DNA of 47,405 nucleotides, from positions 1-47,405 of the forward strand of contig CAZFKS010000001.1 in assembly GCA_964519725.1 (NCBI GenBank). Reading direction: 5' to 3'. A program made the translations under genes and the position numbers. The DNA comes from an uncultured Gammaproteobacteria bacterium. Its GTDB lineage: Bacteria; Patescibacteriota; Patescibacteriia; Magasanikbacterales; UBA922. Within the stretch, counting starts at the first letter, position 1, and each line of letters opens with the position of its first letter. Positions 697 through 26,615 of the stretch are shown here, piece by piece. A model generated the notes under the pieces. That model was given only the letters and a program-made list of their open reading frames with translations, ran no database searches and was not told where the DNA came from.

Positions 697-724
697 AAAA
701 ACGCCTGGTGGCGAAAGGGAATTG

Positions 725-761
725 GCAGGGGGTCAGAGCCAGTGGCTCAACAACCCCCTGC
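725..761. terminator. GC-rich hairpin between convergent genes (8-bp stem GCAGGGGG/CCCCCTGC)
   Basis: 725-732 is perfectly complementary to 754-761 with a 21-nt loop. On the minus strand it is followed by CGCC-ACCA-GGCG plus a T7 run (700-718). Confidence 0.5.
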
Positions 762-762
762 G

Positions 763-1098
763 CTAACGTGGTGCCATGGGATGTAATGGCGGTGGGCGGG
801 GTGTAGGTTTCCAGAAAATGAACACTTGCAGGTAGGCTCCGGCAATAAGCAGAAGCGTCCTCCAGCCAACCCCGAGGGGCAGGCTGAGTGCACCAAGGGT
901 CAGGCTGAGGAAAAAAACCGTGATAGCGAGGGTCATGCGCCGGGTTCCGAAGAACGCCAGCCCAAAACCCATGGTGAGTAGTCCTCCTCGGATGTATCCG
1001 TAGGCCGGGTCAGGGTATGCTCCTGACTCAGCCATGGTTGCGGCCAGTGCGGTCAGGATGACCGCGAAGAACAGAGACGTAGACTTACGGTCGAACAT
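763..1098 (-). CDS. hypothetical polytopic membrane protein (111 aa) encoded in a G+C-rich islet
   Basis: The ORF-track frame was trimmed to the internal ATG at 1098, which has AGGAG (1104-1108) 5 nt upstream. Three to four hydrophobic segments. Codons are TTC/CTG/ATC-biased, unlike the neighbours. Confidence 0.55.
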   Translation of the reverse strand: MFDRKSTSLFFAVILTALAATMAESGAYPDPAYGYIRGGLLTMGFGLAFFGTRRMTLAITVFFLSLTLGALSLPLGVGWRTLLLIAGAYLQVFIFWKPTPRPPPLHPMAPR

Positions 1099-1150
1099 TG
1101 TTTCTCCTGCCTGAGAAGCTCTGGCCGTTAGGCTGGCTTTCAAGCTAATT

Positions 1151-1179
1151 AAACTATCTATTTTTACGGCTTTTGTCAA
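1151..1179 (-). promoter_or_regulatory. promoter of the G+C-rich membrane-protein cassette (TTGACA-17-TAGTTT)
   Basis: Minus strand has TTGACA (1174-1179), a 17-nt spacer and TAGTTT (1151-1156). The predicted leader is about 46 nt and ends in AGGAG-N5-ATG. Confidence 0.5.
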
Positions 1180-1189
1180 TACGTGGAGG

Positions 1190-1218
1190 TTTACGACGTT
1201 GTCGCAGTACGATAAAAT
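1190..1218 (+). promoter_or_regulatory. promoter of murE-like gene (TTTACG-17-TAAAAT), leaderless geometry
   Basis: TTTACG at 1190-1195 and TAAAAT at 1213-1218. The ATG at 1226 is only 7 nt downstream of the -10. Confidence 0.4.
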
Positions 1219-1225
1219 AGTAAGT

Positions 1226-2608
1226 ATGAACTGGAAAAAACTAATTCCGAAAAAAATTCGTAACCTGCGTCACTGGTGGTATGCTTGGTACGGAGCTCGT
1301 AAATACCGTCATCCATCGCAAGAGTTACTGGTGATTGGGGTGACTGGAACGAGTGGTAAATCCACCACGGTTTTTTTGCTCCGCCAAATTTTGGAAGCCG
1401 CGGGTTACCGGGTTGGGTCATTGTCCACCATTGATTTTTACATTGCGGGTGAAAATAAATTAAATGACCAAAAAATGACCATGCTCGGAAAATATGCCAC
1501 GCAAAAATATTTGCGCGAAATGGTTGATAAAAAATGTGATGTGGCGATTGTAGAAACGACCTCTGAAGGGCAATTACAATATCGTAATCGCTATATTGCT
1601 TATGACCTGATGGTCCTAACCAATTTGTACCCAGAACACATTGAAGCGCACGGTGGGTATGAAAATTACAAACAAGCTAAATTAAATATTTTCCGCCGCA
1701 CGTCAACCTACGGTTATGGTAAGGGCCTGCTTGGTGAAGGTTATAAAATTGGAAAATATGGTGCTTTGCACAAAGATTGCTGCTCAGAATTTGAAAAAAC
1801 TTTTATTATAAATGGTGATATAAAAGAAGCGGATGAATTTATTGAAGCGCCAATTTTGGGTGGGCGAATCTTTGTGTTTGGGGAAAACTTAAAAGGCGTG
1901 ACCAAACCAATTCCAGAGGAAAATAAAATTGTGGTGGCTGGAGTGGGGGCAGATAAAGACGGGGTGTTTGGGGTAATTAACCAGCACCTCATGCGCGCAC
2001 CAATGTATGGCGAACACAACATGTTGAATATTACGGCCGCAGTGGCCACGGCGCGGGCACTCGGAATTGATTGGGCAGTATTAGAAAAAGCCGTGCGCAA
2101 TTTACATAATGCGCCTGGTCGCAATGAATTTATTCCTGAAGCGGAAAAGCGTGGGTTTAAAGTAATTGTCGACTATGCGTTTGAACCCAAAGCCATGGCC
2201 GCTTTGTACGAGGTGGTAAAATTATTGGCGCCAAAAAGGGTCATTCATGTGTTTGGTTCCACTGGTGGTGGGCGCGATGTGTCACGTCGTTTTACAGTCG
2301 GTGAATTTGTTGGCCAGCACGCTGATATTTGTATTGTGACTGATGAGGATCCCTATGATGACGAACCACGCGCGATTATGGACGATGTGGCGAGCGCAGT
2401 GCGCAAAACTGGTAAAGTTGATGGTAAAAATTTATTTTTAGTGGTAAATCGTTACACGGCGATTAGTAGGGCCTTACAAATGGCCGAGCCCGGTGATTTA
2501 GTGTTAGTGACAGGCAAGGGAAGTGAACAAGCTATGGTGGTTGCGGGTGGGAAAAAAATTCCGTGGGATGATCGCCAGGTCGTTCGCGATGAATTGGCCA
2601 AATTATAA
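1226..2608 (+). CDS. murE: Mur ligase family protein, MurE-like (UDP-MurNAc-tripeptide synthetase type) with a very short N-terminal region
   Basis: P-loop VIGVTGTSGKSTT, then DVAIVETTSEG, NLYPEHIEAHGG, PGRNEF, GSTGGGRD, VTDEDPYDDEP and TGKGSEQ. An alternative TTG start at 1199 has GGAGG 9 nt upstream. Confidence 0.7.
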   Translation: MNWKKLIPKKIRNLRHWWYAWYGARKYRHPSQELLVIGVTGTSGKSTTVFLLRQILEAAGYRVGSLSTIDFYIAGENKLNDQKMTMLGKYATQKYLREMVDKKCDVAIVETTSEGQLQYRNRYIAYDLMVLTNLYPEHIEAHGGYENYKQAKLNIFRRTSTYGYGKGLLGEGYKIGKYGALHKDCCSEFEKTFIINGDIKEADEFIEAPILGGRIFVFGENLKGVTKPIPEENKIVVAGVGADKDGVFGVINQHLMRAPMYGEHNMLNITAAVATARALGIDWAVLEKAVRNLHNAPGRNEFIPEAEKRGFKVIVDYAFEPKAMAALYEVVKLLAPKRVIHVFGSTGGGRDVSRRFTVGEFVGQHADICIVTDEDPYDDEPRAIMDDVASAVRKTGKVDGKNLFLVVNRYTAISRALQMAEPGDLVLVTGKGSEQAMVVAGGKKIPWDDRQVVRDELAKL

Positions 2609-2609
2609 T

Positions 2610-3308
2610 ATGACTGTCCTGCCTGGACCATTAATTTCGATTATTATTCCGGTGTATAATCGGCCGCTGGAATTTGCGGTCGCACTGGCGTCAGCGGAAG
2701 CGCAAGATTATTTGGCTAAGGAAATTATTGTGGTTGACGATGGCAGTGAGCCAGCGATTACAGTTTCAAATGAAACTATTAAATTAATTCGGCAGAAAAA
2801 TCAGGGTGCGCCTGTGGCGCGGAATGTGGGGGCTAGTTATGCCGCGGGTGAGTATGTAATTTTTTGGGACGCGGATATGACAGCACCAAAAAATTTAATT
2901 TCACAATTATTTTTTGCACTCCAAAATAATCCAGGCGCCAGTTATGCGTACTGTGATCACTGGTTTGGGGAGAAAAAAATGGCGGCCCAAATATTTGACG
3001 CCAAGAAATTAAAAGAACGCAATTACATTGCCACGCCAGCCTTAATTCGCAAAGTCGATTTTCCTGGTTTTGATCCTAGTTTAAAACGCTTTCAAGATTG
3101 GGATTTGTGGTTGACTATGCTCGAACAGAAGAAGGTGGGTGTGTATGTGCCAAATCTTGCGTACACGTTAAAACCAGGCGGAACCATGAGTTCATGGTTA
3201 CCAAAATATGCTTATATGGTGCCATTTAAATGGCTGCCCGGGTTCAAAGAAAAAGTTAAACGCTATGAGGCGGCGCGGCAGGTGATTGTAGAGAAACATA
3301 GTTTATAG
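2610..3308 (+). CDS. family 2 glycosyltransferase
   Basis: Start trimmed to the ATG at 2610, just after the murE stop. ISIIIPVYNRP, VVDDGS and FWDADM (DxD) are typical GT2 motifs. Confidence 0.8.
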   Translation: MTVLPGPLISIIIPVYNRPLEFAVALASAEAQDYLAKEIIVVDDGSEPAITVSNETIKLIRQKNQGAPVARNVGASYAAGEYVIFWDADMTAPKNLISQLFFALQNNPGASYAYCDHWFGEKKMAAQIFDAKKLKERNYIATPALIRKVDFPGFDPSLKRFQDWDLWLTMLEQKKVGVYVPNLAYTLKPGGTMSSWLPKYAYMVPFKWLPGFKEKVKRYEAARQVIVEKHSL

Positions 3309-4641
3309 CCACGAAGGTAAAGACGAAAAAGAGTACGCCAAAGCCCTGAAATAGGGCCGGCGTGGTGAGATTGATAATGCCAAGTGAAATTATGCCAGCT
3401 AAAAGGCCGCGTTCTAACGGCGCGGTTTTTTGATACGCAGCGCGGGCCAGTGGAAACAGGGCATAACCCAAACTGCCAAGCCAAATCACTGTGCCCAGAC
3501 TTCCCAGTTCAGCGAGCATTTCAAGATAGCCCCAATCAAATTGCGTGCGGGTGACACTTTGTTGAGTGACAGGATCAACATACGTAATCGTGGCGCCAAG
3601 GCCTGTTCCAAACCAAGGGTTGGTTTTAATTTGGCGGAGTGCGTCTGGTAAAATAGCCAAGCGAATTGCACCACTAACATCACTAGTTGGCGCGGCGGTG
3701 CCAAGTGCGCGGACACCAAGCAGTTCTAAACCAGTTGACCCTCCGCGACTAACAATGATATTTAGTGAAGTGAAAATAAGGGTCCAACCAATAACAGTAA
3801 TGGTCGAAACTTTTAACCATTGTTTTAGCGGTGCTTTAAAACCAAGGACAATTATGATCGCTGCTAGACTTAATAAATAAATGCGCGAAAAATTTAAGGC
3901 CAGAGTGGTTAAACTTAAACCAAGCCAGAGCCAATTTTTTTTCTCAGTTGGTTTGTAAATTAACCAGGCAATTAAAATCGCAATGATCGGTATGAGTAGG
4001 GTTTGTTCAGATAGTACCACACGGAAAAAATTGTGGCCCAAATCAGTGATTTTGCCGCCCGCACTGTTTCGAAACCAGTGGTAATAAAAATCAGGTAAAG
4101 TGCCAATTTTACTAGCGTAAAGGCCAAGTGTTAAAAGAGAGAAAAAGGTTGAACCAAGAATCCAAGTTTTGCCTGCCGTAATAATTTTATTTACTTCATA
4201 TTTATAGTCTAGAGCTGGAAAAAGCAGGGCAAAAAAACCAAACGCAATGGCGTCTTGCAATGCGGCTAATTTTGTATGACCAGAAATAAAACCATGGAAT
4301 AAACTAAATACAATAATTATTCCGGTGCAACTTAAAAAAAGTAATTGTTCTTTTGGTAAAACTTTAAAATTCATCTTGCCTTTTTTCTGCCCTAACCAAA
4401 CTGCGGCAAAAATTCCCAAAAACCAAGTGCGCAAAATCAGGCCCTGGAACTCAAAAAAATGTCCGGCCCCGCCCAGAAACAATTCAAATAATAAAATAAA
4501 CCAGGCCTGGCGCTGGTTTTTAAAGCAAATAAGCGTGAACACAATGATCGCAAGCCCGGCCAAAATTTCATTGGCCAGTAAAGTGTAAGTTAACAATGAC
4601 AAACCCCGCACTAAAACATAGCTGACAAAAAGAGTCAGCAT
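3256..4641 (-). CDS. O-antigen ligase/Wzy_C-family polytopic membrane protein
   Basis: 461 aa with at least 10 hydrophobic segments and a large loop carrying PWFGTGLGA. The 3' end overlaps the convergent GT2 gene by 53 nt. Confidence 0.65.
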   Translation of the reverse strand: MLTLFVSYVLVRGLSLLTYTLLANEILAGLAIIVFTLICFKNQRQAWFILLFELFLGGAGHFFEFQGLILRTWFLGIFAAVWLGQKKGKMNFKVLPKEQLLFLSCTGIIIVFSLFHGFISGHTKLAALQDAIAFGFFALLFPALDYKYEVNKIITAGKTWILGSTFFSLLTLGLYASKIGTLPDFYYHWFRNSAGGKITDLGHNFFRVVLSEQTLLIPIIAILIAWLIYKPTEKKNWLWLGLSLTTLALNFSRIYLLSLAAIIIVLGFKAPLKQWLKVSTITVIGWTLIFTSLNIIVSRGGSTGLELLGVRALGTAAPTSDVSGAIRLAILPDALRQIKTNPWFGTGLGATITYVDPVTQQSVTRTQFDWGYLEMLAELGSLGTVIWLGSLGYALFPLARAAYQKTAPLERGLLAGIISLGIINLTTPALFQGFGVLFFVFTFVAINYVSLQSPAAPPHSV

Positions 4642-14072: not shown

Positions 14073-14080
14073 TGAGCCCT

Positions 14081-14955: not shown

Positions 14956-14989
14956 AAAAAGCCCGGCAATTTGCTGGGCTTTTTCTTTT
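14956..14989. terminator. bidirectional intrinsic terminator
   Basis: An A-run, then GCCCGGCA-att-TGCTGGGC (8-bp stem with one G:U), then a T-run. Placed between tatD (+) and the small minus-strand ORF. Confidence 0.7.
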
Positions 14990-15179
14990 AGAAACTTAGA
15001 CGGCAGGAGGCTGAAACACTGCCGCGCTTGTCAAAAGAACAAGCGGATGATTGAGATCACGAATATCGCGATGATTATCGTGGTCACGATCGGGCCTGGT
15101 TGCGGTGGCGCGGGACGGCGCCGACGGTAAGCCATACGGCCTCCTTTCTGGAGCAGTTTCAGCCCCGTCTAAATTTCTA
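14989..15179. repeat. G+C-rich about 190-bp element bounded by imperfect 27/34-bp inverted repeats
   Basis: Left arm 14989-15022 is TAGAAACTTAGACGG[CAGGA]GGCTGAAAC[A]CTGC. The reverse complement of 15153-15179 is TAGAAATTTAGACGG-GGCTGAAA-CTGC. Each arm ends in TA. Confidence 0.6.
15031..15135 (-). CDS. candidate 34-aa small membrane peptide MAYRRRRPAPPQPGPIVTTIIIAIFVISIIRLFF
   Basis: AAGGAGG (15140-15146) lies 4 nt upstream of the ATG at 15135. The peptide has an Arg/Pro-rich head and one TM helix. 24 of 34 codons end in G/C (Ile is ATC x6, ATA x2, ATT x0). This is a different frame from the 62-aa track ORF. Confidence 0.45.
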   Translation of the reverse strand: MAYRRRRPAPPQPGPIVTTIIIAIFVISIIRLFF

Positions 15180-15214
15180 TACACTGTGACTAAACTTTTT
15201 TACCATATATTAGC

Positions 15215-15243
15215 TTGTTTTTCAATACTAAACCACCTATAAT
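15215..15243 (+). promoter_or_regulatory. promoter of ligA (TTGTTT-17-TATAAT)
   Basis: Consensus -10 at 15238-15243, 19 nt upstream of the ATG at 15263. Confidence 0.5.
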
Positions 15244-15247
15244 TTAG

Positions 15248-17293
<2,046 letters not shown>

Positions 17294-17294
17294 T

Positions 17295-17525
17295 TTGAGT
17301 GAGATGGGGTACGGCAGCAGCGACCCCATTAACCAGTTGGGGCGCCGGGACTAGAAGCAGAGTGAGCTACAGTCCAGCAACGATTGGACGAGCCTCCTGT
17401 TGTTGAAGAAAAGACAATCGTTGTCGTTAATAGAGTGCTGCTGCCGTTGGGCAAGAGCCAGTGAGTGGAACTCTCCGACTCGGTCAGGATTCTGCCTTAA
17501 TGGCGTCCTCAGCCTGACCGAGACG
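17295..17525. ncRNA. candidate structured RNA of unknown class (G+C-rich non-coding islet between ligA and gatC)
   Basis: 123 of 220 nt are G+C over 17301-17520. No SD-led ORF on either strand. Perfect long-range 11-bp helix 17311-17321/17437-17447 encloses three hairpins. A separate 10-bp hairpin spans 17479-17488/17513-17522. Confidence 0.4.
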
Positions 17526-17554
17526 AGTATACTCTAACTATAGCCAAAAATCAA
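17526..17554 (-). promoter_or_regulatory. minus-strand promoter pointing into the G+C-rich islet (TTGATT-17-TATACT)
   Basis: Minus strand has TTGATT (17549-17554), a 17-nt spacer and TATACT (17526-17531). The predicted start falls at the base of the 10-bp hairpin. Confidence 0.4.
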
Positions 17555-17557
17555 GCC

Positions 17558-17586
17558 TTGTCAGCTACTAGTTTTTGGGCTAAACT
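17558..17586 (+). promoter_or_regulatory. promoter of gatCA (TTGTCA-17-TAAACT), leaderless geometry
   Basis: The ATG at 17597 is 10 nt after the -10. Confidence 0.5.
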
Positions 17587-17596
17587 AAAGTCAAAT

Positions 17597-17902
17597 ATGA
17601 AACTAACTATCTCCGATATTGAGCGGGTCGCCGAGTTAGCCCGTCTAGAACTTATTGATTCGGAAAAAGCCATGTATGCCGAGCAACTCAGCGCGGTTTT
17701 TTCGTATATGGACATGCTGAACTCAGTTGACACTGAGGGTGTGCCAGAAACCTGTCAGGTGACTGGTCTAGAAGACGTAGCGCGCCAAGATGTGGCCAAA
17801 CAAGCCGATTTAGAAGTGCGTAAAAAATTAATTGCGGCTTTCCCAGCCCAAGAAGCGAATTTGTTGAAAGTTCAAGCCGTTTTTAAAGAAGCGAAAAAAT
17901 AA
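17597..17902 (+). CDS. gatC: Asp/Glu-tRNA amidotransferase subunit C
   Basis: MKLTISDIERVAELARLEL...E and its position immediately upstream of gatA. Start trimmed to the ATG at 17597. Confidence 0.85.
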   Translation: MKLTISDIERVAELARLELIDSEKAMYAEQLSAVFSYMDMLNSVDTEGVPETCQVTGLEDVARQDVAKQADLEVRKKLIAAFPAQEANLLKVQAVFKEAKK

Positions 17903-17903
17903 T

Positions 17904-19334
17904 ATGAATCTGAATGAACTAACGATTGCCGAAGCGCGCGCTGGTCTCAATAGTAAAAAATTTACTTCAGTCGAATTAACTGAAGCGTGTTTGCAGCAAA
18001 TTGAAAAACGAAATTCAGAAATTAATGCGTTTATTTCTTTTGATCGCGCGTCAGCACTGGCTGAGGCAAAAAAAGCTGATGAATTAATTGCGGCTGGTAA
18101 AGCTGAACCCTTAACTGGAATTCCGTTTGCGGTCAAAGACGCGATTTGTACCGCTGATATGCGTTCCACTGCGGCCGCCAAAATTTTGGATAATTATGTC
18201 CCAGCCGTTGATGCAACCGTAATTAAAAAAATTCGCGCCCAAGGTGCAGTACTGCTCGGTAAAAATAATTGTGACACGTTTGGCCATGGGGCGAGTAATG
18301 AAAACTCAATGTACGGACCAGTTCGCAATCCGCATGATGCGACCAAAGTTGCGGGCGGATCTTCTGGTGGTTCAGCCGCGGCCGTGGCTGAACATGAAGC
18401 GATTTTTTCGATTGCTGAAGACACTGGTGGTTCAATTCGTCAGCCAGCCGCACTCTGTGGCATTGTTGGCCTGCGTCCAACCTATGGCCGCAATTCCCGC
18501 AGTGGAATTATGCCAATGGCCTCATCACTCGACACGGTTGGCCCAATGGCTAAAACTGTGGCTGATGTTGCGCTGCTCATGGAAATTATGGCTGGGCAAG
18601 ATGAACTTGATGCGACCACAGTTCCAGCGCCAGTTCCAAAATATACTGAAGAAATTACTAAATCAATTGCTGGTTTAAAAATTGGCGTGCCAAAAGAATA
18701 TTTTGAACTTGAGGGCATGGACCAAGAAACCAAAACTTTGGTGGAACGCAAAATGAAAGATTTAGAAAAACTCGGTGCAACTTTGGTCCCGGTTTCATTG
18801 CCTTACACCAAGTACGCAATTCCAGTGTATTACATTATTGTGCCAAGTGAAGACTCGTCAAATTTGGGGCGCATGGATGGGATTCGTTACGGCGTGCGTG
18901 CGAGTGGGGAAAATTTGTACCAAACGTACGCGGCTTCACGCGAACATGGTCTGCCAGCCGAAGTTAAACGCCGCATTATGATTGGTACGTACGCGCTCAG
19001 TGCTGGTTATTATGATGCCTATTACCGCAAAGCGCAGCGTGTTCGCACTTTAATTATTCAAGATTTTCAAAATGTTTTTCGTGAAGTTGATGCGCTCGTC
19101 ACCCCAACCTCACCATTTCCAGCCTTTGGTGTGGGTGAAAAAGCTGATGATGTGCTGGCCATGTATTTAGCTGATGTGTTTGTGAGTCCAGCCGCTGTGG
19201 CTGGCATTCCCGCACTCTCAATTCCAGCTGGTAAAACTGCGGCTGGTTTGCCAGTTGGGCTCCAGATTATTGGCCCGAGTCTGGCTGATGATTTAGTTTT
19301 AAGAATTGGTCACCAATTAGAAACCCTGTCCTAA
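17904..19334 (+). CDS. gatA: Asp/Glu-tRNA amidotransferase subunit A (amidase signature)
   Basis: GIPFAVKD and the amidase signature GGSSGGSAAAVA...DTGGSIRQPA. Confidence 0.95.
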   Translation: MNLNELTIAEARAGLNSKKFTSVELTEACLQQIEKRNSEINAFISFDRASALAEAKKADELIAAGKAEPLTGIPFAVKDAICTADMRSTAAAKILDNYVPAVDATVIKKIRAQGAVLLGKNNCDTFGHGASNENSMYGPVRNPHDATKVAGGSSGGSAAAVAEHEAIFSIAEDTGGSIRQPAALCGIVGLRPTYGRNSRSGIMPMASSLDTVGPMAKTVADVALLMEIMAGQDELDATTVPAPVPKYTEEITKSIAGLKIGVPKEYFELEGMDQETKTLVERKMKDLEKLGATLVPVSLPYTKYAIPVYYIIVPSEDSSNLGRMDGIRYGVRASGENLYQTYAASREHGLPAEVKRRIMIGTYALSAGYYDAYYRKAQRVRTLIIQDFQNVFREVDALVTPTSPFPAFGVGEKADDVLAMYLADVFVSPAAVAGIPALSIPAGKTAAGLPVGLQIIGPSLADDLVLRIGHQLETLS

Positions 19335-19335
19335 T

Positions 19336-20682
19336 ATGCCCAAAAATCACCACCTTGGCTATGCGTTAAAAAAACCTGATTATCGCCAGCCGTGGCGGAT
19401 TTTTCGGATCATGTCTGAATTTGTTGAGGGTTATCAATTTTTGTCACAACTCAAAGACGAAATTACGATCATGGGCTCGGCCCGGTTTCATGATGGCACA
19501 GATAATTATGTCATTGCGCGCGAACTGGGTGCAAAGCTCGCCAAAGCTGGGCACACCGTGATTACTGGTGGTGGTCCAGGTATTATGGAAGCAGCTAATC
19601 GCGGCGCGCATGAAGCGGGTGGAAAATCGGTTGGCCTCAATATTCAACTGCCGTTTGAACAATTACTTAATCCGTACGCACCACAATCCACGTCATTTTT
19701 TTATTTTTTCACCCGCAAGGTGATGCTCACCTCGCCAGCCAATGCGTTTATTTATTTTCCGGGCGGGTTTGGAACCATGGATGAATTTTTTGAAGTGGTT
19801 GACCTGATTGAACTTGGTTTTATTTCCCCAACCCCAATTGTTTTGGTGGGGAAAAAGTTTTGGAATCCACTGATTAAATTTTTAAAAGATAATGAAGCTA
19901 AAACTGGCGAAACCCACCCGTCAATTGATACCTGGCAAGTAGTGGATACCGCGGATGAAGCCATGAAAATTTTGGAAAATGTTTCTGAGCAAACAGATAA
20001 TTTGTGTCCGCTTGATCCATTGTCATTTCACAATGAAAAAAATATTGACTGGCGGATTTTCCGAATTATGGCTGAACTGGTTGAAGGTTTTGAGTTTGTG
20101 TCAGACATGCCCGACGCAATTACGGTTTTGGGGACTAAATCAATTCCAGAAACTAGTCACTATTATGACTCAGCCCGGAATTTGGGTGGGGAATTGACCA
20201 AAGCTGGTTATGCGGTTATTACTGGCGGAAATAAAGGGGTGGCCGAAGCGGCCAACCAAGGGGCGTTTGAGCATGGCGGCGCCAGCATGGGCATTGCTAT
20301 GCAGTTCCGCGGCAAAGCAATCCTTAATCCGTATTTGACCAAATCAATTCAATTTAGTTTTCCGTTTACGCGCAAATTAATTTTGACCACGCCAACCTCT
20401 GGGTTTGTGTTTTATCCAGGTGGGTTTGGAACGTTGCACCAATTATTTGAAGTTTTGACGTTAATTCAAACCAAAAAAATGACCAAAGTGCCAGTGATTT
20501 TGGTTGATCATGATTTTTGGGGTCCAATGCACAATTATATTAAAGAAGTTTTGTTTCATGATGTGGACACGATTGCGGACGAGGATGACGAGCTCTACCA
20601 AATTGTTGATTCCGAAGCCAGTGCCATGAAAGTGCTGGGCCAAACCCTCAAAAAGAACGTGCGCGCTGGGGCGCAGGAATAA
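19336..20682 (+). CDS. tandem LOG-family (TIGR00730) fusion protein: canonical N-terminal copy plus divergent C-terminal copy
   Basis: Copy 1 has GSAR, TGGGPGIMEAANRGA and PGGFGTMDE. Copy 2 has GTKS, TGGNKGVAEAANQGA and PGGFGTLHQ. Both copies start with WRIFRIM(S/A)E(F/L)VEG. Confidence 0.8.
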   Translation: MPKNHHLGYALKKPDYRQPWRIFRIMSEFVEGYQFLSQLKDEITIMGSARFHDGTDNYVIARELGAKLAKAGHTVITGGGPGIMEAANRGAHEAGGKSVGLNIQLPFEQLLNPYAPQSTSFFYFFTRKVMLTSPANAFIYFPGGFGTMDEFFEVVDLIELGFISPTPIVLVGKKFWNPLIKFLKDNEAKTGETHPSIDTWQVVDTADEAMKILENVSEQTDNLCPLDPLSFHNEKNIDWRIFRIMAELVEGFEFVSDMPDAITVLGTKSIPETSHYYDSARNLGGELTKAGYAVITGGNKGVAEAANQGAFEHGGASMGIAMQFRGKAILNPYLTKSIQFSFPFTRKLILTTPTSGFVFYPGGFGTLHQLFEVLTLIQTKKMTKVPVILVDHDFWGPMHNYIKEVLFHDVDTIADEDDELYQIVDSEASAMKVLGQTLKKNVRAGAQE

Positions 20683-20684
20683 TT

Positions 20685-21434
20685 ATGATCCCGTGGTTTG
20701 TTTTCCATTCATTTCAAATTGGCCCGCTTAATATTCAAGTTTGGGGCCTGTTTGTGGCCCTTGGAATGCTCCTTAGTTTGTGGCTTCTCAAAAAAGAAAC
20801 AAAAAATAATCCGCAGCAAAAAAAAATTTTTGATATTGCGTTCTGGGTAATTGTCTGGGGTTTTATTGGCGCGCGCCTTGGTCATGTCTTATTTTACAAA
20901 CCATTGTTTTTTCTGAGCCACCCGCTGGATATTTTCAAAATTTGGCAGGGCGGCATGTCATCATTTGGGAGTTTTTTTGGGGCGGGCGCAGCGGCCTCTT
21001 ATTTGATCAAAAAGCACAAATTAAATCTACGCGAATTAGCTGATACTTTTTTGTATGTGTCAGTGCCGGGCTGGATAGTGGGGCGTGTAGGCTGTTTTAT
21101 GATTCATGATCATTTGGGAGCGGCGTCAAATTGTCCACTTGCGATTATGACTCCGGTTGGCCAGCGGCTCGACATGGCCTTGTTAGAAATAATTGGGTTA
21201 ATTCCACTCGCCGTGTGGCTCTATGTGGGGCGCCAGAAAGTGCGCCGAGCAGGGGAGAAAGGACTGATTATTTTGGGCTATTACAGTGCTCTTCGACTTG
21301 TTTTAGACTTCTGGCGGGCCACTGACATTGCCACAGCTGACACCCGATACTTAGGATTGACTCCAGCCCAATATTTTAGTATGGTACTGCTTGGTTTTTG
21401 CTTGTTTTTCTTATTTAAAGCTCACCGAAAATAA
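20685..21434 (+). CDS. lgt: prolipoprotein diacylglyceryl transferase
   Basis: N-terminal FxIGPLxIxxWG, GARLGHV and GRxGCF motifs in a polytopic protein. Confidence 0.88.
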   Translation: MIPWFVFHSFQIGPLNIQVWGLFVALGMLLSLWLLKKETKNNPQQKKIFDIAFWVIVWGFIGARLGHVLFYKPLFFLSHPLDIFKIWQGGMSSFGSFFGAGAAASYLIKKHKLNLRELADTFLYVSVPGWIVGRVGCFMIHDHLGAASNCPLAIMTPVGQRLDMALLEIIGLIPLAVWLYVGRQKVRRAGEKGLIILGYYSALRLVLDFWRATDIATADTRYLGLTPAQYFSMVLLGFCLFFLFKAHRK

Positions 21435-21435
21435 T

Positions 21436-21882
21436 ATGGAAATGAAAGTTTATGTCAGTGCGGTGATTGAACAAGATGGAAAAATTCTGTTAGTTCAGGA
21501 GGCCAAAGAAAGGAATTTTCAGAAATGGAACATTCCTGGTGGCAGCATGGAACTGACTGAAAAAGCGTGGGAAGGTGCACAAAGAGAAGTGAAAGAAGAG
21601 ACGTTTTTGGATGTGGAAATTACTTCATTGCTTGGGGTGTACAATTCTGTTGGTAATAATCACTCAATTAGATTTGTGTTCGTGGGAAAAATTGTAAGTG
21701 GTACTCCTGCAGCTGGAGACAATATTTTGGCTGTTAAATGGGTAGACCCAAAAGAACTGGTAAATTTAGATCCAGCTCATTATATTAATCCGTTAGTTTT
21801 TGAAGCCCTGGCAAAAGATTATGTTGACGGTGTTCGTCATCCGCTGGAAACAGTCAGAGAAATAGGTAAACATAACAAATAG
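21436..21882 (+). CDS. NUDIX hydrolase
   Basis: Nudix box GGSMELTEKAWEGAQREVKEETFL. Start trimmed to the ATG at 21436. Confidence 0.8.
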   Translation: MEMKVYVSAVIEQDGKILLVQEAKERNFQKWNIPGGSMELTEKAWEGAQREVKEETFLDVEITSLLGVYNSVGNNHSIRFVFVGKIVSGTPAAGDNILAVKWVDPKELVNLDPAHYINPLVFEALAKDYVDGVRHPLETVREIGKHNK

Positions 21883-21891
21883 TTACAACAT

Positions 21892-21976
21892 GGAGAGGTC
21901 GCATAGTGGCCTAGTGCGCCGCCTTGGAAAGGCGGTATACCGCAAGGTATCGAGGGTTCAAATCCCTCCCTCTCCG
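21892..21976 (+). tRNA. tRNA-Ser (anticodon GGA)
   Basis: GGAGAGG acceptor pairing with CCTCTCC, anticodon loop TT-GGA-AA, long variable arm TATACCGCAAGGTAT and T loop GGTTCAAATCC. CCA is not encoded. Confidence 0.9.
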
Positions 21977-21993
21977 CATAATTATTAAGTTTT

Positions 21994-22023
21994 TTGACTA
22001 AAGTGAGCGCCGCATGTTAGTCT
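21994..22023 (+). promoter_or_regulatory. promoter of the G+C-rich Lys-rich ORF (TTGACT-18-TAGTCT)
   Basis: TTGACT at 21994-21999 and TAGTCT at 22018-22023. The predicted leader is about 42 nt and opens with hairpin AATCACGC-aattcc-GCGTGATT (22031-22052). Confidence 0.4.
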
Positions 22024-22071
22024 GACCCTGAATCACGCAATTCCGCGTGATTTCAGGCTAAGGAGATCTCC

Positions 22072-22227
22072 GTGGCACATCGTACCCTGAGCAACGGCAA
22101 TTCGAAGAAGAGCCGGGACAAGCACGAGAAGGTCCAGAAGAACTCGGCCAAGGCGCCGGGGAAGAGCTGGATCGATATGGGTCCGAACACCAACTCGAAG
22201 CGGAACCAGGATCGCAAGAAGAAGTGA
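22072..22227 (+). CDS. candidate 51-aa highly basic, Lys-rich small protein (GTG start) in a G+C-rich islet
   Basis: AAGGAG (22060-22065) lies 6 nt upstream of the GTG. 89 of 156 nt are G+C and 44 of 51 codons end in G/C. All 11 Lys codons are AAG, whereas the next gene uses AAA. Peptide: MAHRTLSNGNSKKSRDKHEKVQKNSAKAPGKSWIDMGPNTNSKRNQDRKKK. Confidence 0.5.
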   Translation: MAHRTLSNGNSKKSRDKHEKVQKNSAKAPGKSWIDMGPNTNSKRNQDRKKK

Positions 22228-22261
22228 GCTGGCCGCTACGCGCGAGTAGCGCGAGATGACT

Positions 22262-22289
22262 AGGGGGCGGTGTTCGCGCGCCGCCCCCT
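22262..22289 (+). terminator. GC-rich hairpin after the small basic ORF (9-bp stem AGGGGGCGG/CCGCCCCCT)
   Basis: Perfect 9-bp stem with a 10-nt loop, preceded by a second hairpin CGCTAC-gcgcga-GTAGCG. There is no U-run. Confidence 0.45.
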
Positions 22290-22333
22290 CCCTACAACTA
22301 GAAAAGGATTGCAAAAAATGGTAGGATGAGAGC

Positions 22334-22990
22334 ATGAAAAAAGTAAGATTTCGAATTTTAGAAAATAAATTAATTACTGAGTCGCTTGCTGAGAATATTA
22401 AAAAAGAAACAGCAGAAGCGATTATTGAAGTTGCTAAACATCTTCCAATTGCTGAAGTTGATATTACTCTGGGGCATCTGCCAAAAAATATTGCCACTGG
22501 AATAATTAGTGGAAGTAGTGCCAATAAACATGAAGCAACTATTGCGCTGAATGTTAGACATCGGAATTTTAAAAAACGTCTACATGTTGAACTTCCTAAA
22601 GTTATTGCCCACGAGCTTTATCATACGGTCCGAACTCGGAAAAATAAGTACCCTGAAACTTTATTGGAAATGTTTATTGAAGAAGGTTTGGCAATCCATT
22701 TTGAGTTAGAAGTGTATGGAGGGGAACCCCCAGCTTACGCAGTTCGACTTAGTGATAAAGTGTTAAGAAAAACTATAGAAATGGCAAGAAAAAGTTTTTA
22801 CTCAACTAGATTCTCTCAGGATAATTGGTTCCATGGTGGAAATACTAAAAAAATTCCTCGCTCTGCCGGTTACTGCATTGGTTATTTTTTAGTTAAAAAC
22901 ATGTTAGAGAAAAATACACAAAACACTGTGTCAAAATTGGTGACAAAAAAATATATATACTTTATATCCAAAATTAGTCCTACTCTATAA
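22334..22990 (+). CDS. putative Zn-dependent protease (HExxH; DUF2268-like)
   Basis: AHELYHTVR (HExxH), EEGLA and a C-terminal SAGYCIGYFLV, which resemble DUF2268. Confidence 0.5.
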   Translation: MKKVRFRILENKLITESLAENIKKETAEAIIEVAKHLPIAEVDITLGHLPKNIATGIISGSSANKHEATIALNVRHRNFKKRLHVELPKVIAHELYHTVRTRKNKYPETLLEMFIEEGLAIHFELEVYGGEPPAYAVRLSDKVLRKTIEMARKSFYSTRFSQDNWFHGGNTKKIPRSAGYCIGYFLVKNMLEKNTQNTVSKLVTKKYIYFISKISPTL

Positions 22991-22998
22991 TTTTTATT

Positions 22999-23424
22999 AT
23001 GATAACCCTTAACCCTTACATTAACTTTAATGGTAATGCTGAAGAAGCTTTTACCTTTTACAAATCTGTTTTTGGTGGCGAATTTACTGCACTCACTCGG
23101 TTCAAAGAAATTGCCAGCGCCGAATTTCCAGTGCCAGAAAGTGAAGCCGATAAAATCATGCGCATTGTGTTGCCAATTGGTAACAATGTTTTGATTGCCA
23201 ATGATGTTCCAACCATGATGGGGCGAGTAAACGAGAATGAAAATCGATCTAAAATTGCAGTGATTGTTGATAGCAAAGAAGAAGCTGAGCGAATTTTCAA
23301 TGGCCTATCGGCGGGCGGAACAGTAGAAATGCCAATCGACCAAAGTCCTTGGGGCACTTACTTTGCCATGTTTAGAGACAAGTACGGGATTGAGTGGACT
23401 GTGGAGTTTGGGGAGAGAAAATAG
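22999..23424 (+). CDS. VOC-superfamily protein (PhnB/YjdN-like)
   Basis: LNPYINFNGNAEEAFTFYKSVFGG and C-terminal SPWGTYFAMFRDKYGIEW. Confidence 0.75.
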   Translation: MITLNPYINFNGNAEEAFTFYKSVFGGEFTALTRFKEIASAEFPVPESEADKIMRIVLPIGNNVLIANDVPTMMGRVNENENRSKIAVIVDSKEEAERIFNGLSAGGTVEMPIDQSPWGTYFAMFRDKYGIEWTVEFGERK

Positions 23425-23468
23425 TTGGTAAATGGCACCAACTACCACTACTTTTTCCATTGAAATAT

Positions 23469-23984
23469 ATGTTTTTTATACCAGGGCAATTAATATCGCT
23501 TTTAACTTTTCCAGGGGTAATTGTACATGAGTGGGCTCATAAGAAGTTCTGTGATTGGTTTGGTGTTAAGGTTCACGAGGTTGCTTATTTTAAATTTTGG
23601 CAAAAAATCGCAGGACATGTATTACATGAGGTGCCATCAACATTTAAACAAACTTTTTGGGTGTCGGTTGGACCTCTGATTGTAAATTCAATTGGATGTA
23701 TTATATTGAGTGCCGTGTCCTCACAAACAATCCCCGAGAGTTTTCTAAATTATTTTTTTCTTTGGCTTGCTTTATCGATTGGGGCACATTCATTTCCAAG
23801 TGACCATGACGCAAAAAATATTCTAGAAAGAAGTAAGAACCACATTAAAGATGGCGATTCTTTTATACATTATCTATCCTATCCATTTTTTGCGCTTATT
23901 TGGCTTGCCAATAAATTGAGTTTTTTCTGGTTTGATTTCATCTATGCATGTCTACTTATGCGGATAGGTGGAGGTGTAAGTTAA
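23469..23984 (+). CDS. membrane protein with HExxH motif (putative zincin, DUF3267-like)
   Basis: FPGVIVHEWAHKKF followed by hydrophobic segments. Start set to the only in-frame ATG after the upstream stop. Paralogous layout to the 42417-43187 protein. Confidence 0.5.
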   Translation: MFFIPGQLISLLTFPGVIVHEWAHKKFCDWFGVKVHEVAYFKFWQKIAGHVLHEVPSTFKQTFWVSVGPLIVNSIGCIILSAVSSQTIPESFLNYFFLWLALSIGAHSFPSDHDAKNILERSKNHIKDGDSFIHYLSYPFFALIWLANKLSFFWFDFIYACLLMRIGGGVS

Positions 23985-23990
23985 TATTAT

Positions 23991-24431
23991 ATGCCCGAAT
24001 TAAAAACCAAGGTAAATAAAGCCAGTGTTGCCAAATTTTTGGATACCATTACTGACCCGCAAAAGCGTGAGGATTGTTTGGTGGTTTCCAAAATGATGGA
24101 AAAAGCCACCAAATCCAAACCCGAAATGTGGGGCACGGCAATTGTTGGTTTTGGTCGCCTGACCTACCGTTACGCCAATGGCAAAGAAGGGGAATGGATG
24201 TTGATTGGTTTTTCGCCGCGAAAAGGCTACATTGCGCTGTATGGTTTAAAAGTGTTCACCATGGCCGAAGGCAAAATAAAAGCCGGCAAAGGCGAAAATG
24301 ATTTTTTGTTAAAATTAGGAAAATACAAAGAAGGCGGCGGGTGCATTTACATCAATAAATTGGCGGATGTGAATGTCAAGGAGCTGGAGAAAATTATTAA
24401 ACTCGCGGTAAAAAGAAAGGCAAACGCCTAG
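23991..24431 (+). CDS. DUF1801 (YdhG-like) domain protein
   Basis: 146 aa with N-terminal VAKFLDTITDPQKRED and WGTAIVGFG, typical of DUF1801. Confidence 0.65.
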   Translation: MPELKTKVNKASVAKFLDTITDPQKREDCLVVSKMMEKATKSKPEMWGTAIVGFGRLTYRYANGKEGEWMLIGFSPRKGYIALYGLKVFTMAEGKIKAGKGENDFLLKLGKYKEGGGCIYINKLADVNVKELEKIIKLAVKRKANA

Positions 24432-24434
24432 GTT

Positions 24435-25118
24435 ATGAAAAATCAGTACTTTGGTGATTTTGGCGACTACCAAAAGTTTTCTCTGCTCAAACATTTGCGT
24501 GACAGTGCCAAATTGAACATTTTGGTTCACTGGATGAAAACCAAAGACGATTTTAGTAACGACGGTGCAAAAATAAAATATCTTTCGAGCCCCAATGAAT
24601 GGGCTTCTTTTGAACCAGAAATCTTTGCTTTTATTGATGGTCACATCAAACAAGAAAAGCGCGATTTGGCACTTTACGAAAAAAGTGAACATGCTAAAAA
24701 TATTACTTTCCTGAGTGATTTTATTGAAAACGAAAATGTTCACGCTAAACTTTTAGAAAAAATAAAAACCGATCAAAAATCAGATTTGGTTTTCTTTGAT
24801 CCAGATAATGGAATTGAAGTTAAATCAACTAACCCCAAAAATAGACATAAGTACGTGACCTGGGCTAATATAAAGACAGCCTTTGAAGCTGGTAAAAGCG
24901 TGCTAGTCTATCAGCATTACTCCAGAATGAATCGGGATAAATTTATTGCTGCGAAATTGACTGAATTCAAAGAGCGATTTCCTCAAGATGTTTTTGTGAT
25001 CAAGGTAAAGCACTCTGTTTATTTTTTGTTGCCACAAATTAAACACAAAAAAGAAATTGCCAAGGCCCTTCAAAATTATTCGACTGTATGGACAAAAAAC
25101 ACCGCATCTACACCATGA
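24435..25118 (+). CDS. hypothetical protein (227 aa), unrecognised family
   Basis: Clean ORF in operonic spacing. N-terminal [17 protein letters not shown] and central [11 protein letters not shown] blocks. No family could be assigned by eye. Confidence 0.6.
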
Positions 25119-25441
25119 GCTTTGCCAGTGTCTACCCACTTTATGTGACCAAGGCAGAAAAGAAGGGGCGCACCAAAGCCGAAGTTGATGAAATTATTAG
25201 CTGGCTCACTGGCTACACCCACAAGGGGTTAGAAGCGGCTCTCAAAAAGGGGATTGATTTTGAAACATTTTTTGCAGAGGCTCCCAAATTAAACCCAACC
25301 CGCGCTTTGATTAAAGGCGTAATTTGCGGTGTTCAAATTGAGGAAATAACAGATCCGCTCATGCGTGAAATTCGCTACTTGGATAAATTAATTGACGAGC
25401 TGGCCAAAGGAAAAACAATGGAAAAGATTTTGCGGAAATAA
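25088..25441 (+). CDS. DUF2200 family protein
   Basis: [39 protein letters not shown] matches the DUF2200 signature as remembered. An alternative start at 25115 would give an ATGA overlap with the upstream gene. Confidence 0.65.
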
Positions 25442-25442
25442 T

Positions 25443-25685
25443 ATGATTAAAAAATCCGACTCAGCTGTTCACCGCATGCCCTCTGACTTTAAAAAAGCCT
25501 TGGCTTCTGATGCCAAAGCGCAGTCAACCTGGGACGATATCACTCCTAATGCCCGCAAAAACTGGATTTGTTGGATAATTTCTGCTAAAAAAGAAGAGAC
25601 GCGGGCGCGGCGGATTGAAGTTGGGCTTTCTAAGCTTGGCTCAGGCATGCGGCGACCATGTTGTTTTGAAGGTTGCAAACATTAA
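25443..25685 (+). CDS. YdeI/OmpD-associated family protein
   Basis: 80 aa. ...WDDITPNARKNWICWIISAKKEETRARRI... is typical of the YdeI C-terminal domain. Confidence 0.65.
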   Translation: MIKKSDSAVHRMPSDFKKALASDAKAQSTWDDITPNARKNWICWIISAKKEETRARRIEVGLSKLGSGMRRPCCFEGCKH

Positions 25686-25708
25686 TTTATTATTTTTAAT
25701 TTAGACCT

Positions 25709-26128
25709 ATGCTCCCAGTCAATTACGCTGCCATTTTAGTTGCTGCCCTCGCCAACTTTGTTGTTGGTTTTATGTTCCACGGCCCACTCTTTGGCAAACT
25801 TTGGATGCGCCTGGCTAACATTCACCCAACTGGCAATGAAAAATTCAAAGACATGATCCCACAAATGATCAAAAATTATCTGGTCAATGTTTTATTTGCT
25901 TACGTCCTCGCTGTGGTCTATTTATTTGCCACCACCTCACCACTCATGGGCGGCAGTGGTGCCTTAAATGGTATGGCCTGCGCATTTTGGGTTTGGCTCG
26001 GGTTTGTGTTCACGACCACTTCAATCGAAGTTATTTGGATGGGTCGTTCAGCCAAACTTTGGTACTTTGAACTGGCCGCGTCACTCACTAGCTCGTTAGT
26101 TATGGGGGCAATTATTGGAGCTTGGTAA
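25709..26128 (+). CDS. DUF1761 family membrane protein
   Basis: N-terminal NYAAILVAALANFVVGFMFHGPLFGKLW and four TM segments. Confidence 0.65.
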   Translation: MLPVNYAAILVAALANFVVGFMFHGPLFGKLWMRLANIHPTGNEKFKDMIPQMIKNYLVNVLFAYVLAVVYLFATTSPLMGGSGALNGMACAFWVWLGFVFTTTSIEVIWMGRSAKLWYFELAASLTSSLVMGAIIGAW

Positions 26129-26153
26129 TTAGTAATGGGTGCTTAAAATTCGA

Positions 26154-26177
26154 AGCCCGGCACTGATGTGCCGGGCT
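26154..26177. terminator. perfect 10-bp GC hairpin (AGCCCGGCAC-tgat-GTGCCGGGCT)
   Basis: Lies between DUF1761 (+) and the convergent G+C-rich ORF (-). On the minus strand it is followed by UCGAAUUUUA. A second 8-bp hairpin (26183-26190/26203-26210) covers the minus ORF stop. Confidence 0.6.
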
Positions 26178-26203
26178 GTTGGGTACTGACGCCCTCGTCT
26201 GTG

Positions 26204-26527
26204 TCAGTACTCGTTCCCTTGAGTTTCGGCGCGGGACTTTCCCGGCCCCCAGTTCCTCATGGCCTCTGCCTGGAACTCGTTGAGGAGGACGATTTCCCTG
26301 CCGTCGTGGTAGCGAAATGTCACTTGCTGCTGCTGGGGATCGTCATGAATCTCCACCGCCGCCTCCCCACCTTTCTGGGGGATGAGGTAGGTAATGGACT
26401 TGCCGTTCAGCAGCGCCTGCTCAGCCGCGGCTCGGGCCCTGACCGAGGGCCAGGCGCTGGGGCGATGGCGGTGGTGCATCAGGATATCTGCCGACTGGAG
26501 GGTGGCTGCCACCCGTTGCTGGTTCAT
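26204..26527 (-). CDS. hypothetical 107-aa soluble protein in a G+C-rich islet
   Basis: GAGG (26532-26535) lies 4 nt upstream of the ATG at 26527, with a consensus promoter further upstream. No TM segment and no recognised family. Confidence 0.55.
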   Translation of the reverse strand: MNQQRVAATLQSADILMHHRHRPSAWPSVRARAAAEQALLNGKSITYLIPQKGGEAAVEIHDDPQQQQVTFRYHDGREIVLLNEFQAEAMRNWGPGKSRAETQGNEY

Positions 26528-26582
26528 GTTGCCTCGCTTGTACTCAGGGCCCCCTTAGCCCTTGAGGTCTATAAGACAGTAG

Positions 26583-26611
26583 AATATACTAAAAACAATT
26601 AATTTTGTCAA
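26583..26611 (-). promoter_or_regulatory. near-consensus promoter of the 107-aa G+C-rich ORF (TTGACA-17-TATATT)
   Basis: Minus strand has TTGACA (26606-26611), a 17-nt spacer and TATATT (26583-26588). The leader is about 49 nt and contains hairpin CTCAAGGGC-taagggg-GCCCTGAG. Confidence 0.55.
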
Positions 26612-26615
26612 TCCT

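Follow-up and report, generated by a model that had tools for sequence, protein, structure and literature searches.

Five short G+C-rich islets were detected in intergenic gaps of a 47.4-kb stretch of DNA (the window; 42.6% G+C overall) from a member of Candidatus Magasanikbacteria. With about even confidence, we interpret these islets as moron-like accessory micro-cassettes undergoing turnover at hotspots that lie between core genes. In both composition and translation signals, the islets are foreign to the core genome of the host, and the islet proteins of 111, 51 and 107 amino acids (aa), for which homologues were sought, are ORFans. In the nearest relatives the same gaps carry unrelated cassettes, and the class recurs in the Magasanikbacteria.

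The islets are located in the gaps translin/murE (islet 1, 700-1180), tatD/ligA (islet 2, 14989-15179), ligA/gatC (islet 3, 17295-17525), tRNA-Ser/DUF2268 (islet 4, 21994-22290) and DUF1761/VOC (islet 5, 26150-26612), and their G+C contents are 0.559, 0.545, 0.554, 0.589 and 0.590, respectively. Non-islet segments of the same lengths had a mean G+C content of 0.42, and the fractions of them reaching islets 1 to 5 were 0, 0.0037, 0.0007, 0 and 0. The sliding-window profile showed five sharp G+C peaks in the intergenic gaps, with exactly these bounds. The original prediction, made by reading the sequence alone, had placed five G+C-rich segments at these coordinates; they are indeed extreme outliers, matched by at most 0.4% of equal-length segments, and a recount of its hand-counted G+C values (89/156, 123/220 and 24/60) gave identical numbers. 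The four open reading frames (ORFs) that it described, of 111, 34, 51 and 107 aa, are present at their positions. These ORFs and a fifth, interrupted frame are as follows (pI, isoelectric point; GC1, GC2 and GC3, G+C content at the three codon positions).

763-1098, minus strand: islet 1 ORF, 111 aa, pI 10.6, G+C 0.58, GC3 0.63
15031-15135, minus strand: islet 2 ORF, 34 aa, pI 12, GC3 0.69
17295-17537, plus strand: islet 3 GC3-rich frame, ATG at 17304, in-frame TAG at 17352-17354, stop at 17535-17537
22072-22227, plus strand: islet 4 ORF, 51 aa, GTG start, GC1/2/3 0.44/0.42/0.85, pI 10.9
26204-26527, minus strand: islet 5 ORF, 107 aa, soluble product, GC1/2/3 0.67/0.44/0.79

The GC3 values of the four ORFs (0.63, 0.69, 0.85 and 0.79 for the 111-, 34-, 51- and 107-aa ORFs) compare with 0.23 to 0.50 over 49 native ORFs, of which about 0.38 is typical. 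Codon counts agreed with GC3 in bearing out the predicted use of G/C-ending synonymous codons. The shares in islets versus natives were 88% and 16% for AAG (11/11 lysine codons in the 51-aa ORF), 80% and 23% for GAG, 73% and 14% for TTC, 68% and 12% for ATC, 91% and 26% for AAC, and 77% and 27% for CTG plus CTC. Codon choice was thus opposite to that of the host for G-ending and C-ending codons alike. The excess of arginine over lysine and the order GC1>GC2<GC3 in the cassette ORFs are the pattern of a genome with about 60% G+C. Three-base periodicity, taken as a measure of coding potential, was significant for two ORFs, those of 51 aa (p=5.5e-6) and 107 aa (p=3.7e-7), but not for the 111- and 34-aa ORFs (p about 0.2 for each); the islet 3 frame was also periodic (p=2.6e-4).

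The translation signals of the islets also differ from those of the host. A strong Shine-Dalgarno sequence (SD) had been claimed for every ORF, which held for three of the four (AGGAG for the 111-aa, AAGGAGG for the 34-aa and AAGGAG for the 51-aa ORF, 5 to 7 nt), whereas the 107-aa ORF has GAGG only. Native genes mostly lack an SD, as had been stated: only 1/36 has a 5-mer SD, and loose 4-mers were found in 6/49. A TATAAT-like box lies 6-8 nt upstream of the ATG in many first-in-operon native genes, and from their sequence these genes look leaderless (starts, e.g., at 15263, 22999, 28427 and 43187). Within native operons, successive stop and start codons often take the form TAAT-ATG. The phylum sample gave a 5-mer SD for 69/1208 native genes (5.7%), compared with 40/1208 (3.3%) in the in-gene control.

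The expression signals and hairpins of the islets are listed below.

697-762, minus strand: islet 1 3' end, terminator-like region common to the convergent translin gene (direct reading)
705-716, minus strand: islet 1 hairpin CGCC-TGGT-GGCG, then T run at 695-701
727-761, minus strand: islet 1 hairpin CAGGGGGT..ACCCCCTG
1104-1108, minus strand: islet 1 SD AGGAG (direct reading)
1151-1156 and 1174-1179, minus strand: islet 1 -10-like TAGTTT (weak) and -35 TTGACA, 17-nt spacer
14989-15179, minus strand: islet 2 cassette
17526-17564, minus strand: two overlapping promoter-like sites into islet 3 (consensus match only)
21892-21977, plus strand: tRNA-Ser(GGA); islet 4 starts 17 nt past its 3' end
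21994-22071, plus strand: islet 4 leader, with -35-like TTGACT at 21994-21999 and SD AAGGAG at 22060-22065
about 22030-22056, plus strand: islet 4 leader hairpin TGAATCACGC..GCGTGATTTCA
22234-22289, plus strand: islet 4 3' hairpins CGCTAC..GTAGCG and GGGGGCGG..CCGCCCCC
26154-26212, no strand assigned: islet 5 left-edge hairpins
26532-26611, minus strand: islet 5 SD GAGG (26532-26535), -10 TATATT (26583-26588) and -35 TTGACA (26606-26611)

Promoters had been proposed for three ORFs. The one for the 107-aa ORF is strong, the consensus scan giving TTGACA-17-TATATT with an 11/12 match at 26611-26583 and a leader of about 49 nt. For the 111- and 51-aa ORFs the -35 element is good (TTGACA and TTGACT, respectively), but the -10 element is only a weak TAxxxT and both sites fall below the scan threshold. 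The predicted promoters sit in very A+T-rich, host-like DNA, that of islet 5 in 17% G+C DNA beside the VOC gene start and the promoter-like site of islet 1 in A+T-rich DNA that flanks murE as well. This indicates that only the transcribed part of a cassette is compositionally foreign.

The G+C-rich hairpins said to bound the islets are real, as the transcripts of all five islets, including the flanks, fold at z = -2.2 to -6.7 relative to shuffled sequences. The ORF-only segments gave z = 0.08, -0.23 and -0.74, compared with -0.41 +/- 1.22 for natives, and the excess structure is located in leaders, closing stems and terminators. Since the ORFs alone fold no better than shuffles, selection for RNA folding in the coding regions is unsupported as a cause of the composition. 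Translational optimisation by the host is excluded by rpmA, a highly expressed native gene without the islet-type codons. The G+C content of rpmA is above the genome level through codon positions 1 and 2 only; its GC3 is 0.40 and its preferred codons are T/C-ending.

43240-43521, minus strand: rpmA (ribosomal protein bL27), a small gene absent from the ORF list

The source organism is a small, uncultured, groundwater-type bacterium of Candidatus Magasanikbacteria within the Candidate Phyla Radiation (CPR; Patescibacteria). The top relatives of the anchor protein, encoded at 19336-20682 on the plus strand, were all Candidatus Magasanikbacteria, with at most 74% identity. A search for strain-level relatives in genome and metagenome contigs found none, the top anchor-protein identity being 73-74%. 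The comparison covered 80 genome loci for gene order, 163 loci for the repeat search and 86 non-redundant loci (1.44 Mb) for the islet scan. The genes flanking the islets in the window are translin, murE, cvpA, tatD, ligA, gatC, gatA, the gene of a double LOG-family protein and lgt, and further those of a NUDIX protein, tRNA-Ser, DUF2268, DUF1761 and VOC/glyoxalase proteins. The order ligA-gatC-gatA-LOG-lgt is conserved over the 80 genome loci, with gatC-gatA-LOG kept in 80/80 Magasanikbacteria loci. In the phylum sample the spacing of ligA and gatC runs from 2 bp up to 5.9 kb, with values of 2-57 bp in L071, L032, L048, L014, L021, L061 and L050; in L004, about 50 bp separate tatD from ligA.

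Comparison of the syntenic loci, which the original prediction had proposed, showed that the backbone is kept in L085 and L001 and that the inserts differ. L085 is the nearest relative with long flanks (amino acid identity of 89% for tatD, 85% for ligA and 89% for gatA), and none of the window's inserts was found in it. Its tatD/ligA gap carries a 114-aa lipoprotein gene (G+C up to 0.70) and a 51-aa gene, its ligA/gatC gap a G+C-rich 107-aa membrane/CxxC gene and its lgt/tRNA-Ser gap a G+C-rich 64-aa membrane gene. In L001, a G+C-rich gene of about 120 aa is located in the cvpA/tatD gap. The G+C-rich small genes of both loci are non-homologous to those of the window and lie in the same or neighbouring gaps. 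Together with SD-led G+C-rich ORFs in many loci, these differences support the predicted recurrent class of variable small-gene modules.

The islet scan detected non-genic G+C-rich islets in 55/86 loci, and about 25-28 of the scanned islets hold a GC3-rich ORF of at least 45 aa. The raw count of 101 islets is an upper bound, because small native genes such as rpmA are included in it. Two 'conserved G+C-rich non-coding elements' of the survey were rejected, as they proved to be the rpmA gene, which in A+T-rich relatives mimics a G+C-rich intergenic islet and is a trap for composition-based scans. A 5-mer SD precedes 17/28 G+C-rich cassette ORFs, compared with the 69/1208 natives (odds ratio 25, p=5e-14), a contrast that is inflated because an SD earned a bonus when the best ORF of each islet was chosen; the chance expectation in 57% G+C sequence is about 3.5% by our own calculation. 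The cassette proteins contain 7.5% arginine and 4.3% lysine, against 3.9 and 7.0% in natives, and cassette G+C is about 0.53-0.64 irrespective of a host G+C of 0.34-0.46. No Pfam family was found among the surveyed cassette ORFs.

One cassette family, family A, occupies a single syntenic site after a glyoxalase gene in five species (L024, L027, L035, L038 and L061). Its tree is incongruent with that of the anchor: the L035 and L038 members are 61% identical, and the closer relatives L024/L027 27-32%. The synonymous divergence (dS) of the family is 0.65, compared with 1.85 for the anchor. The incongruent tree and the lower dS suggest that family A was exchanged among lineages at a fixed hotspot. 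A second SD-led family (L035 17826-18074 and L027 19074-19331, both minus strand; 82-85 aa, 38% identity) is Cys/His-rich and zinc-ribbon-like, with a GC3 of 0.81-0.87 and no Pfam family.

Other loci gave further observations on such segments. The cassette in the ligA/gatC gap of L026 (718-996, plus strand), in a 36% G+C genome, begins with an N-terminal prepilin-type signal (GFTLIDLLIV...), so that at least one cassette encodes a pilin-like or pseudopilin protein. The same gap holds G+C-rich segments of 330-540 bp in L057 (7837-8164), L055 (7457-7820) and L047 (7676-8215), for which no convincing ORF, Rfam match or mutual similarity was found; they may be decayed cassettes or unfamiliar RNAs. 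L004, from a Magasanikbacteria genome of 58% G+C, has an island of 70-72% G+C at 13655-17040 with a 114-aa SD-led ORF (GC3 0.90).

An assembly or binning artefact, in which reads of a high-G+C organism were stitched into a Magasanikbacteria contig, is extremely unlikely. The window derives from a metagenome, and islet 2 is the only islet not recovered in an independent assembly, the Logan contigs of SRR11567520. These contigs are 100% identical to the window over 26474-30326, 21948-26485, 16506-21902 and about 26-3731, and thereby span islets 1, 3 and 4 across both junctions and reach into islet 5 from either side. For four of the five islets, these matches speak against the chimeric assembly that the original prediction had wished to exclude. 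Contig L164 carries islet 3 with both its junctions, and contig L082 an identical 51-aa ORF. The single Logan break is inside islet 5, where L082 ends (4539-4560) in the Nextera adapter CTGTCTCTTATACACATCT; this is a library artefact due to adapter read-through and not a variant. The Logan reads are possibly those behind the window, and thus binning error is excluded but read-level chimeras are not. The inserts also lie exactly within gaps between intact flanking genes, and the same phenomenon occurs in dozens of unrelated assemblies.

According to the micro-cassette interpretation, each cassette would consist of one small gene with its own predicted promoter, leader, SD and hairpin terminator. 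The cassettes would come from a horizontally exchanged pool, whose composition would be set outside the host core genome and whose traits would include about 57-63% G+C, more arginine than lysine and SD-dependent initiation. After DNA uptake, recombination within the conserved neighbouring genes may bring cassettes into the hotspots or swap them there, and this would account for the lack of an integrase, of target duplications and of att repeats. Transcription would start at host-type sigma-70-like promoters in the A+T-rich flank. The products, small membrane, basic or soluble proteins, may have accessory roles, for example in the envelope or in host interaction; the role of the 34-aa peptide may be toxin-like. 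The cassettes would decay quickly.

Several known systems resemble the islets in part. A phage moron, in the concept of Hendrix and Juhala, is an extra gene with its own promoter and terminator and a deviant composition, often small and without an assigned function. The islets likewise place one extra small gene, of a base composition unlike that of its neighbours, between genes adjacent in relatives (ligA/gatC, tatD/ligA). As candidate promoters and terminators they show an 11/12 match for the 107-aa ORF, weaker TTGACA/TAxxxT pairs in two others, and predicted hairpins. They differ from morons in their housekeeping flanks, the lack of any PHROG, phage or viral-contig match and the host-like promoters. 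Pangenome hotspots, where genes are gained and lost between core genes, were reportedly described by Oliveira and colleagues in 2017. As there, one core interval carries different accessory genes in relatives and no mobility genes, a pattern consistent with exchange by flank recombination, but the islets differ in scale, each being a single gene of 0.2-0.5 kb, and in a cargo that always exceeds the host in G+C and is led by an SD in an SD-lacking phylum. Integron cassettes are similar in their small ORFan genes, atypical composition and the imperfect inverted repeat nearby; the islets, unlike these, are solitary, with promoter-like sites of their own, between core genes. The islet 2 repeat contains no GTTRRRY core (no formal attC model was run), and the scanned neighbours are housekeeping genes and not intI, although not every window protein was scanned for it. 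Acquired and ORFan genes are usually A+T-richer than their host. What is unusual here is the micro scale, a cargo G+C-richer than the host and SD signals in an SD-free CPR phylum.

Several findings weigh against the interpretation as exchanged micro-cassettes. Acquisition from a high-G+C donor, as originally proposed, agrees with a composition atypical at all codon positions and with absence from close relatives, but no homologue was found in high-G+C taxa, phages, plasmids or viral contigs. The protein searches covered the 111-, 51- and 107-aa proteins, while the 34-aa peptide had family scans only. No homologue of the three proteins was detected in 5.8 billion clusters by word-indexed search, and neither tblastn against phages and plasmids nor a search of viral contigs gave a match. 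For the 107-aa protein, 1.84 billion representatives were also searched exhaustively with HMMER, and no real homologue was found; the three matches were rejected as repeat-inflated alignments to giant leucine-rich repeat (LRR)/repeat proteins. The cassette clusters have 1-3 members, the named ones being Magasanikbacteria/Parcubacteria hypotheticals. The amino-acid contents of the 51-aa (Lys/Asn-rich) and 34-aa (Ile/Phe-rich) products resemble those of A+T-rich genomes. No insertion scars were seen, whether as a target duplication, a tRNA repeat at islet 4 or a second islet 2 repeat. Promoters in host-like A+T-rich DNA imply that what arrived with a cassette was not a complete foreign transcription unit. 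In family A, GC3 is 0.68-0.71, compared with about 0.35 in the host, and the SD is present in 4/5 species, at a distance at which synonymous sites of the anchor are saturated; neutral amelioration should by then have erased the composition. The lack of a donor and the persistence of family A count against simple recent import, which leaves that persistence of G+C and SD, together with the host-type promoters, unexplained. Loss of the anti-SD is reported for one Parcubacteria subgroup (PMC9297842).

Part of this evidence is what a native, lineage-restricted class would produce, that is, a reservoir of small genes in the Magasanikbacteria pangenome in which selection keeps the G+C-rich codons and the SD. 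Its members would then not have been imported from another organism. Such a class is rather improbable but a serious alternative. It would account for the syntenic family A, for named relatives and homologues confined to the group, for host-type promoters by consensus match, for a cassette G+C independent of that of the host and for an SD that, in an SD-free background, is a potential class-specific switch. Possible variants are translation only when the anti-SD is available, or low expression via host-rare codons. Against it stand the shift to arginine and the GC1>GC2<GC3 pattern, as a genome with about 60% G+C produces them; moreover, the coding parts are no more structured than shuffles, rpmA, the sole highly expressed native available, lacks these codons, the nearest genomes show no conservation, and the family A tree disagrees with the anchor. 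A related proposal, which we consider unlikely, is that SD-free Magasanikbacteria keep a class of small G+C-rich SD-led genes tuned to a different translation regime. In one version these might form a switchable SD-dependent regulon, by analogy with the few SD-led Bacteroidia genes that respond to anti-SD availability; in a radical version they may be adapted for expression by the SD-using ribosomes of a partner bacterium with a higher G+C content, the host of the CPR cell.

The original prediction had also named a selfish or addiction-type family. As type I toxin-antitoxin or addiction modules, the islets would encode toxic peptides on structured mRNAs checked by antisense RNAs, and selfish persistence would account for the scatter of the cassettes. 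Islet 2 fits this anatomy, with a cationic head and a hydrophobic tail in its 34-aa peptide, a predicted 24-bp closing stem and a predicted paired SD (z=-6.6); like hok/sok, tisB/istR and aapA/isoA, it is a stand-alone intergenic locus for a small hydrophobic peptide with predicted 5'/3' mRNA pairing and a sequestered SD. Small membrane peptides also occur in cassettes of relatives (47 aa in L070, 64 aa in L085), and islet 3 has promoter-like sites opposite its coding frame. The likeness does not extend to the other cassettes, as the 51- and 107-aa products are hydrophilic and soluble, the 107- and 111-aa products are larger and no antitoxin was shown. The antisense promoter-like site of islet 2 (15051-15078) matches at 9/12, which is at chance level (8 found versus 4.3 expected), and no PADLOC or Pfam toxin was matched. 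The addiction explanation is unlikely for the class.

G+C-rich stable-RNA islands in A+T-rich genomes are the basis of composition-based screens for non-coding RNAs, and the islets share with them sharp intergenic G+C peaks and strong predicted folds. That the islets are structured non-coding RNAs with accidental ORFs is nevertheless very unlikely. All five transcripts fold beyond shuffles, and islet 3, without an intact ORF, reaches z=-5.1 on the minus strand, but the excess folding lies in flanks and terminators and not in ORFs. Codon periodicity in islets 3, 4 and 5 (p 2.6e-4 to 3.7e-7) and correct SD spacing and start geometry in three ORFs show coding, and at gathering score Rfam gave tRNAs only across the window.

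The islet proteins had no match in Pfam, NCBIfam, PADLOC or PHROG families, nor in a PDB profile search. In an exact-sequence look-up the 107-, 51- and 34-aa ORFs had never been called as genes in the public collection; the 111-aa ORF was called there, its sole match being itself. The 111-aa product of islet 1 is, as judged from its predicted hydrophobic profile, a small basic membrane protein with at least two hydrophobic segments. The fold of 697-1145 (minus strand) gave z=-3.6/-4.8.

Islet 2 is bounded by an imperfect inverted repeat with arms of about 30 nt (14989-15023/15150-15179), which is predicted to form the 24-bp closing stem in the minus-strand RNA (minimum free energy -82.2, z=-6.6). 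The 34-aa peptide has an Arg-rich head, MAYRRRRPAPPQPGP, and an Ile-rich hydrophobic tail, IVTTIIIAIFVISIIRLFF, and in the predicted fold the SD AAGGAGG (15140-15146) is paired in a CUCC/GGAG hairpin. A miniature inverted-repeat transposable element was rejected for islet 2, because no further copy of the repeat was found in the 47-kb window or the 163 loci, no target duplication was seen at its ends, and arms of about 30 nt are present only here and not in the other four islets.

Islet 3 had been described as lacking an ORF, but it holds a GC3-rich plus-strand frame, broken by one TAG (GC1/2/3 0.41/0.49/0.72 from 17295, p=2.6e-4). The interruption of this frame by an in-frame stop indicates that islet 3 is probably a decayed cassette. 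Its stems are at 17311-17321/17437-17447, with a hairpin at 17476-17488/17513-17525, and it folds at z=-2.6 on the plus and -5.1 on the minus strand. The two promoter-like sites on the minus strand are CTGACA-16-TATAGT (10/12) and TTGATT-17-TATACT (9/12). Given these sites and the strong fold, islet 3 may have an RNA role; no Rfam match was found for it even at E<=10. A conserved non-coding RNA of the ligA/gatC gap was rejected, since the G+C-rich gaps of other genomes are unrelated and Rfam gives tRNAs only.

The 51-aa product of islet 4 is very basic and hydrophilic, with 11 lysines. Integration at the adjacent tRNA-Ser was rejected for islet 4, as there is no repeat of at least 10 nt of the tRNA 3' end downstream and no integrase, the 51-aa ORF being the only one. 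In L085 (11654-12286), an A+T-rich P-loop kinase-like gene comes after tRNA-Ser(GGA) and precedes a truncated copy of the same tRNA, consisting of the upstream leader, the 5' end and the 3' half, with a 30-nt exact repeat. This arrangement is an att-like scar left by site-specific integration, in the position that islet 4 occupies in the window.

For the 107-aa protein of islet 5, an alpha-alpha-beta4-alpha fold was predicted (AlphaFold model; pLDDT, the model's confidence score, 65), and Foldseek found no fold match for this model (best E=0.12). A 144-aa plus-strand ORF at 26168-26602 was rejected as a gene, being the antisense shadow of the 107-aa ORF (GC1 0.72); the Logan gene caller also chose the minus strand. 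The hairpin AGCCCGGCAC/GTGCCGGGCT is predicted to be the terminator of the DUF1761 gene, and the hairpin GTACTGAC..GTCAGTAC spans the stop codon of the 107-aa ORF.

CPR/Patescibacteria have small streamlined genomes, and their accessory biology is almost uncharted. Mini-genes of this kind can be scanned for by their signature, a G+C peak between genes combined with high GC3 and a strong SD where the genome otherwise lacks one, and they reverse the usual rule of A+T-richer acquired and ORFan genes. For episymbiont functions in the envelope, in host interaction, as toxins or in immunity, fast-turnover mini-genes between essential genes are prime candidates. The islet SDs also offer a way of asking whether SD pairing is still used by these ribosomes, in view of the anti-SD loss reported for some Parcubacteria (PMC9297842).

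Among other features of the window, the identification of the anchor gene as gatB was ruled out, because its 448-aa product has two LOG/'Lysine_decarbox' (PF03641) domains. Within 6 kb there are four VOC/glyoxalase-like (3-dmu-9_3-mt) paralogues (22999-23424, 26616-27053, 27455-27940 and 27951-28349), interleaved with DUF1801, DUF2200, OmdA, DUF1761 and DoxX genes. This neighbourhood is a variable 'small enzyme' region, whose synteny with relatives is only partial. A partial tRNA gene is located at the window edge (1-55, minus strand).

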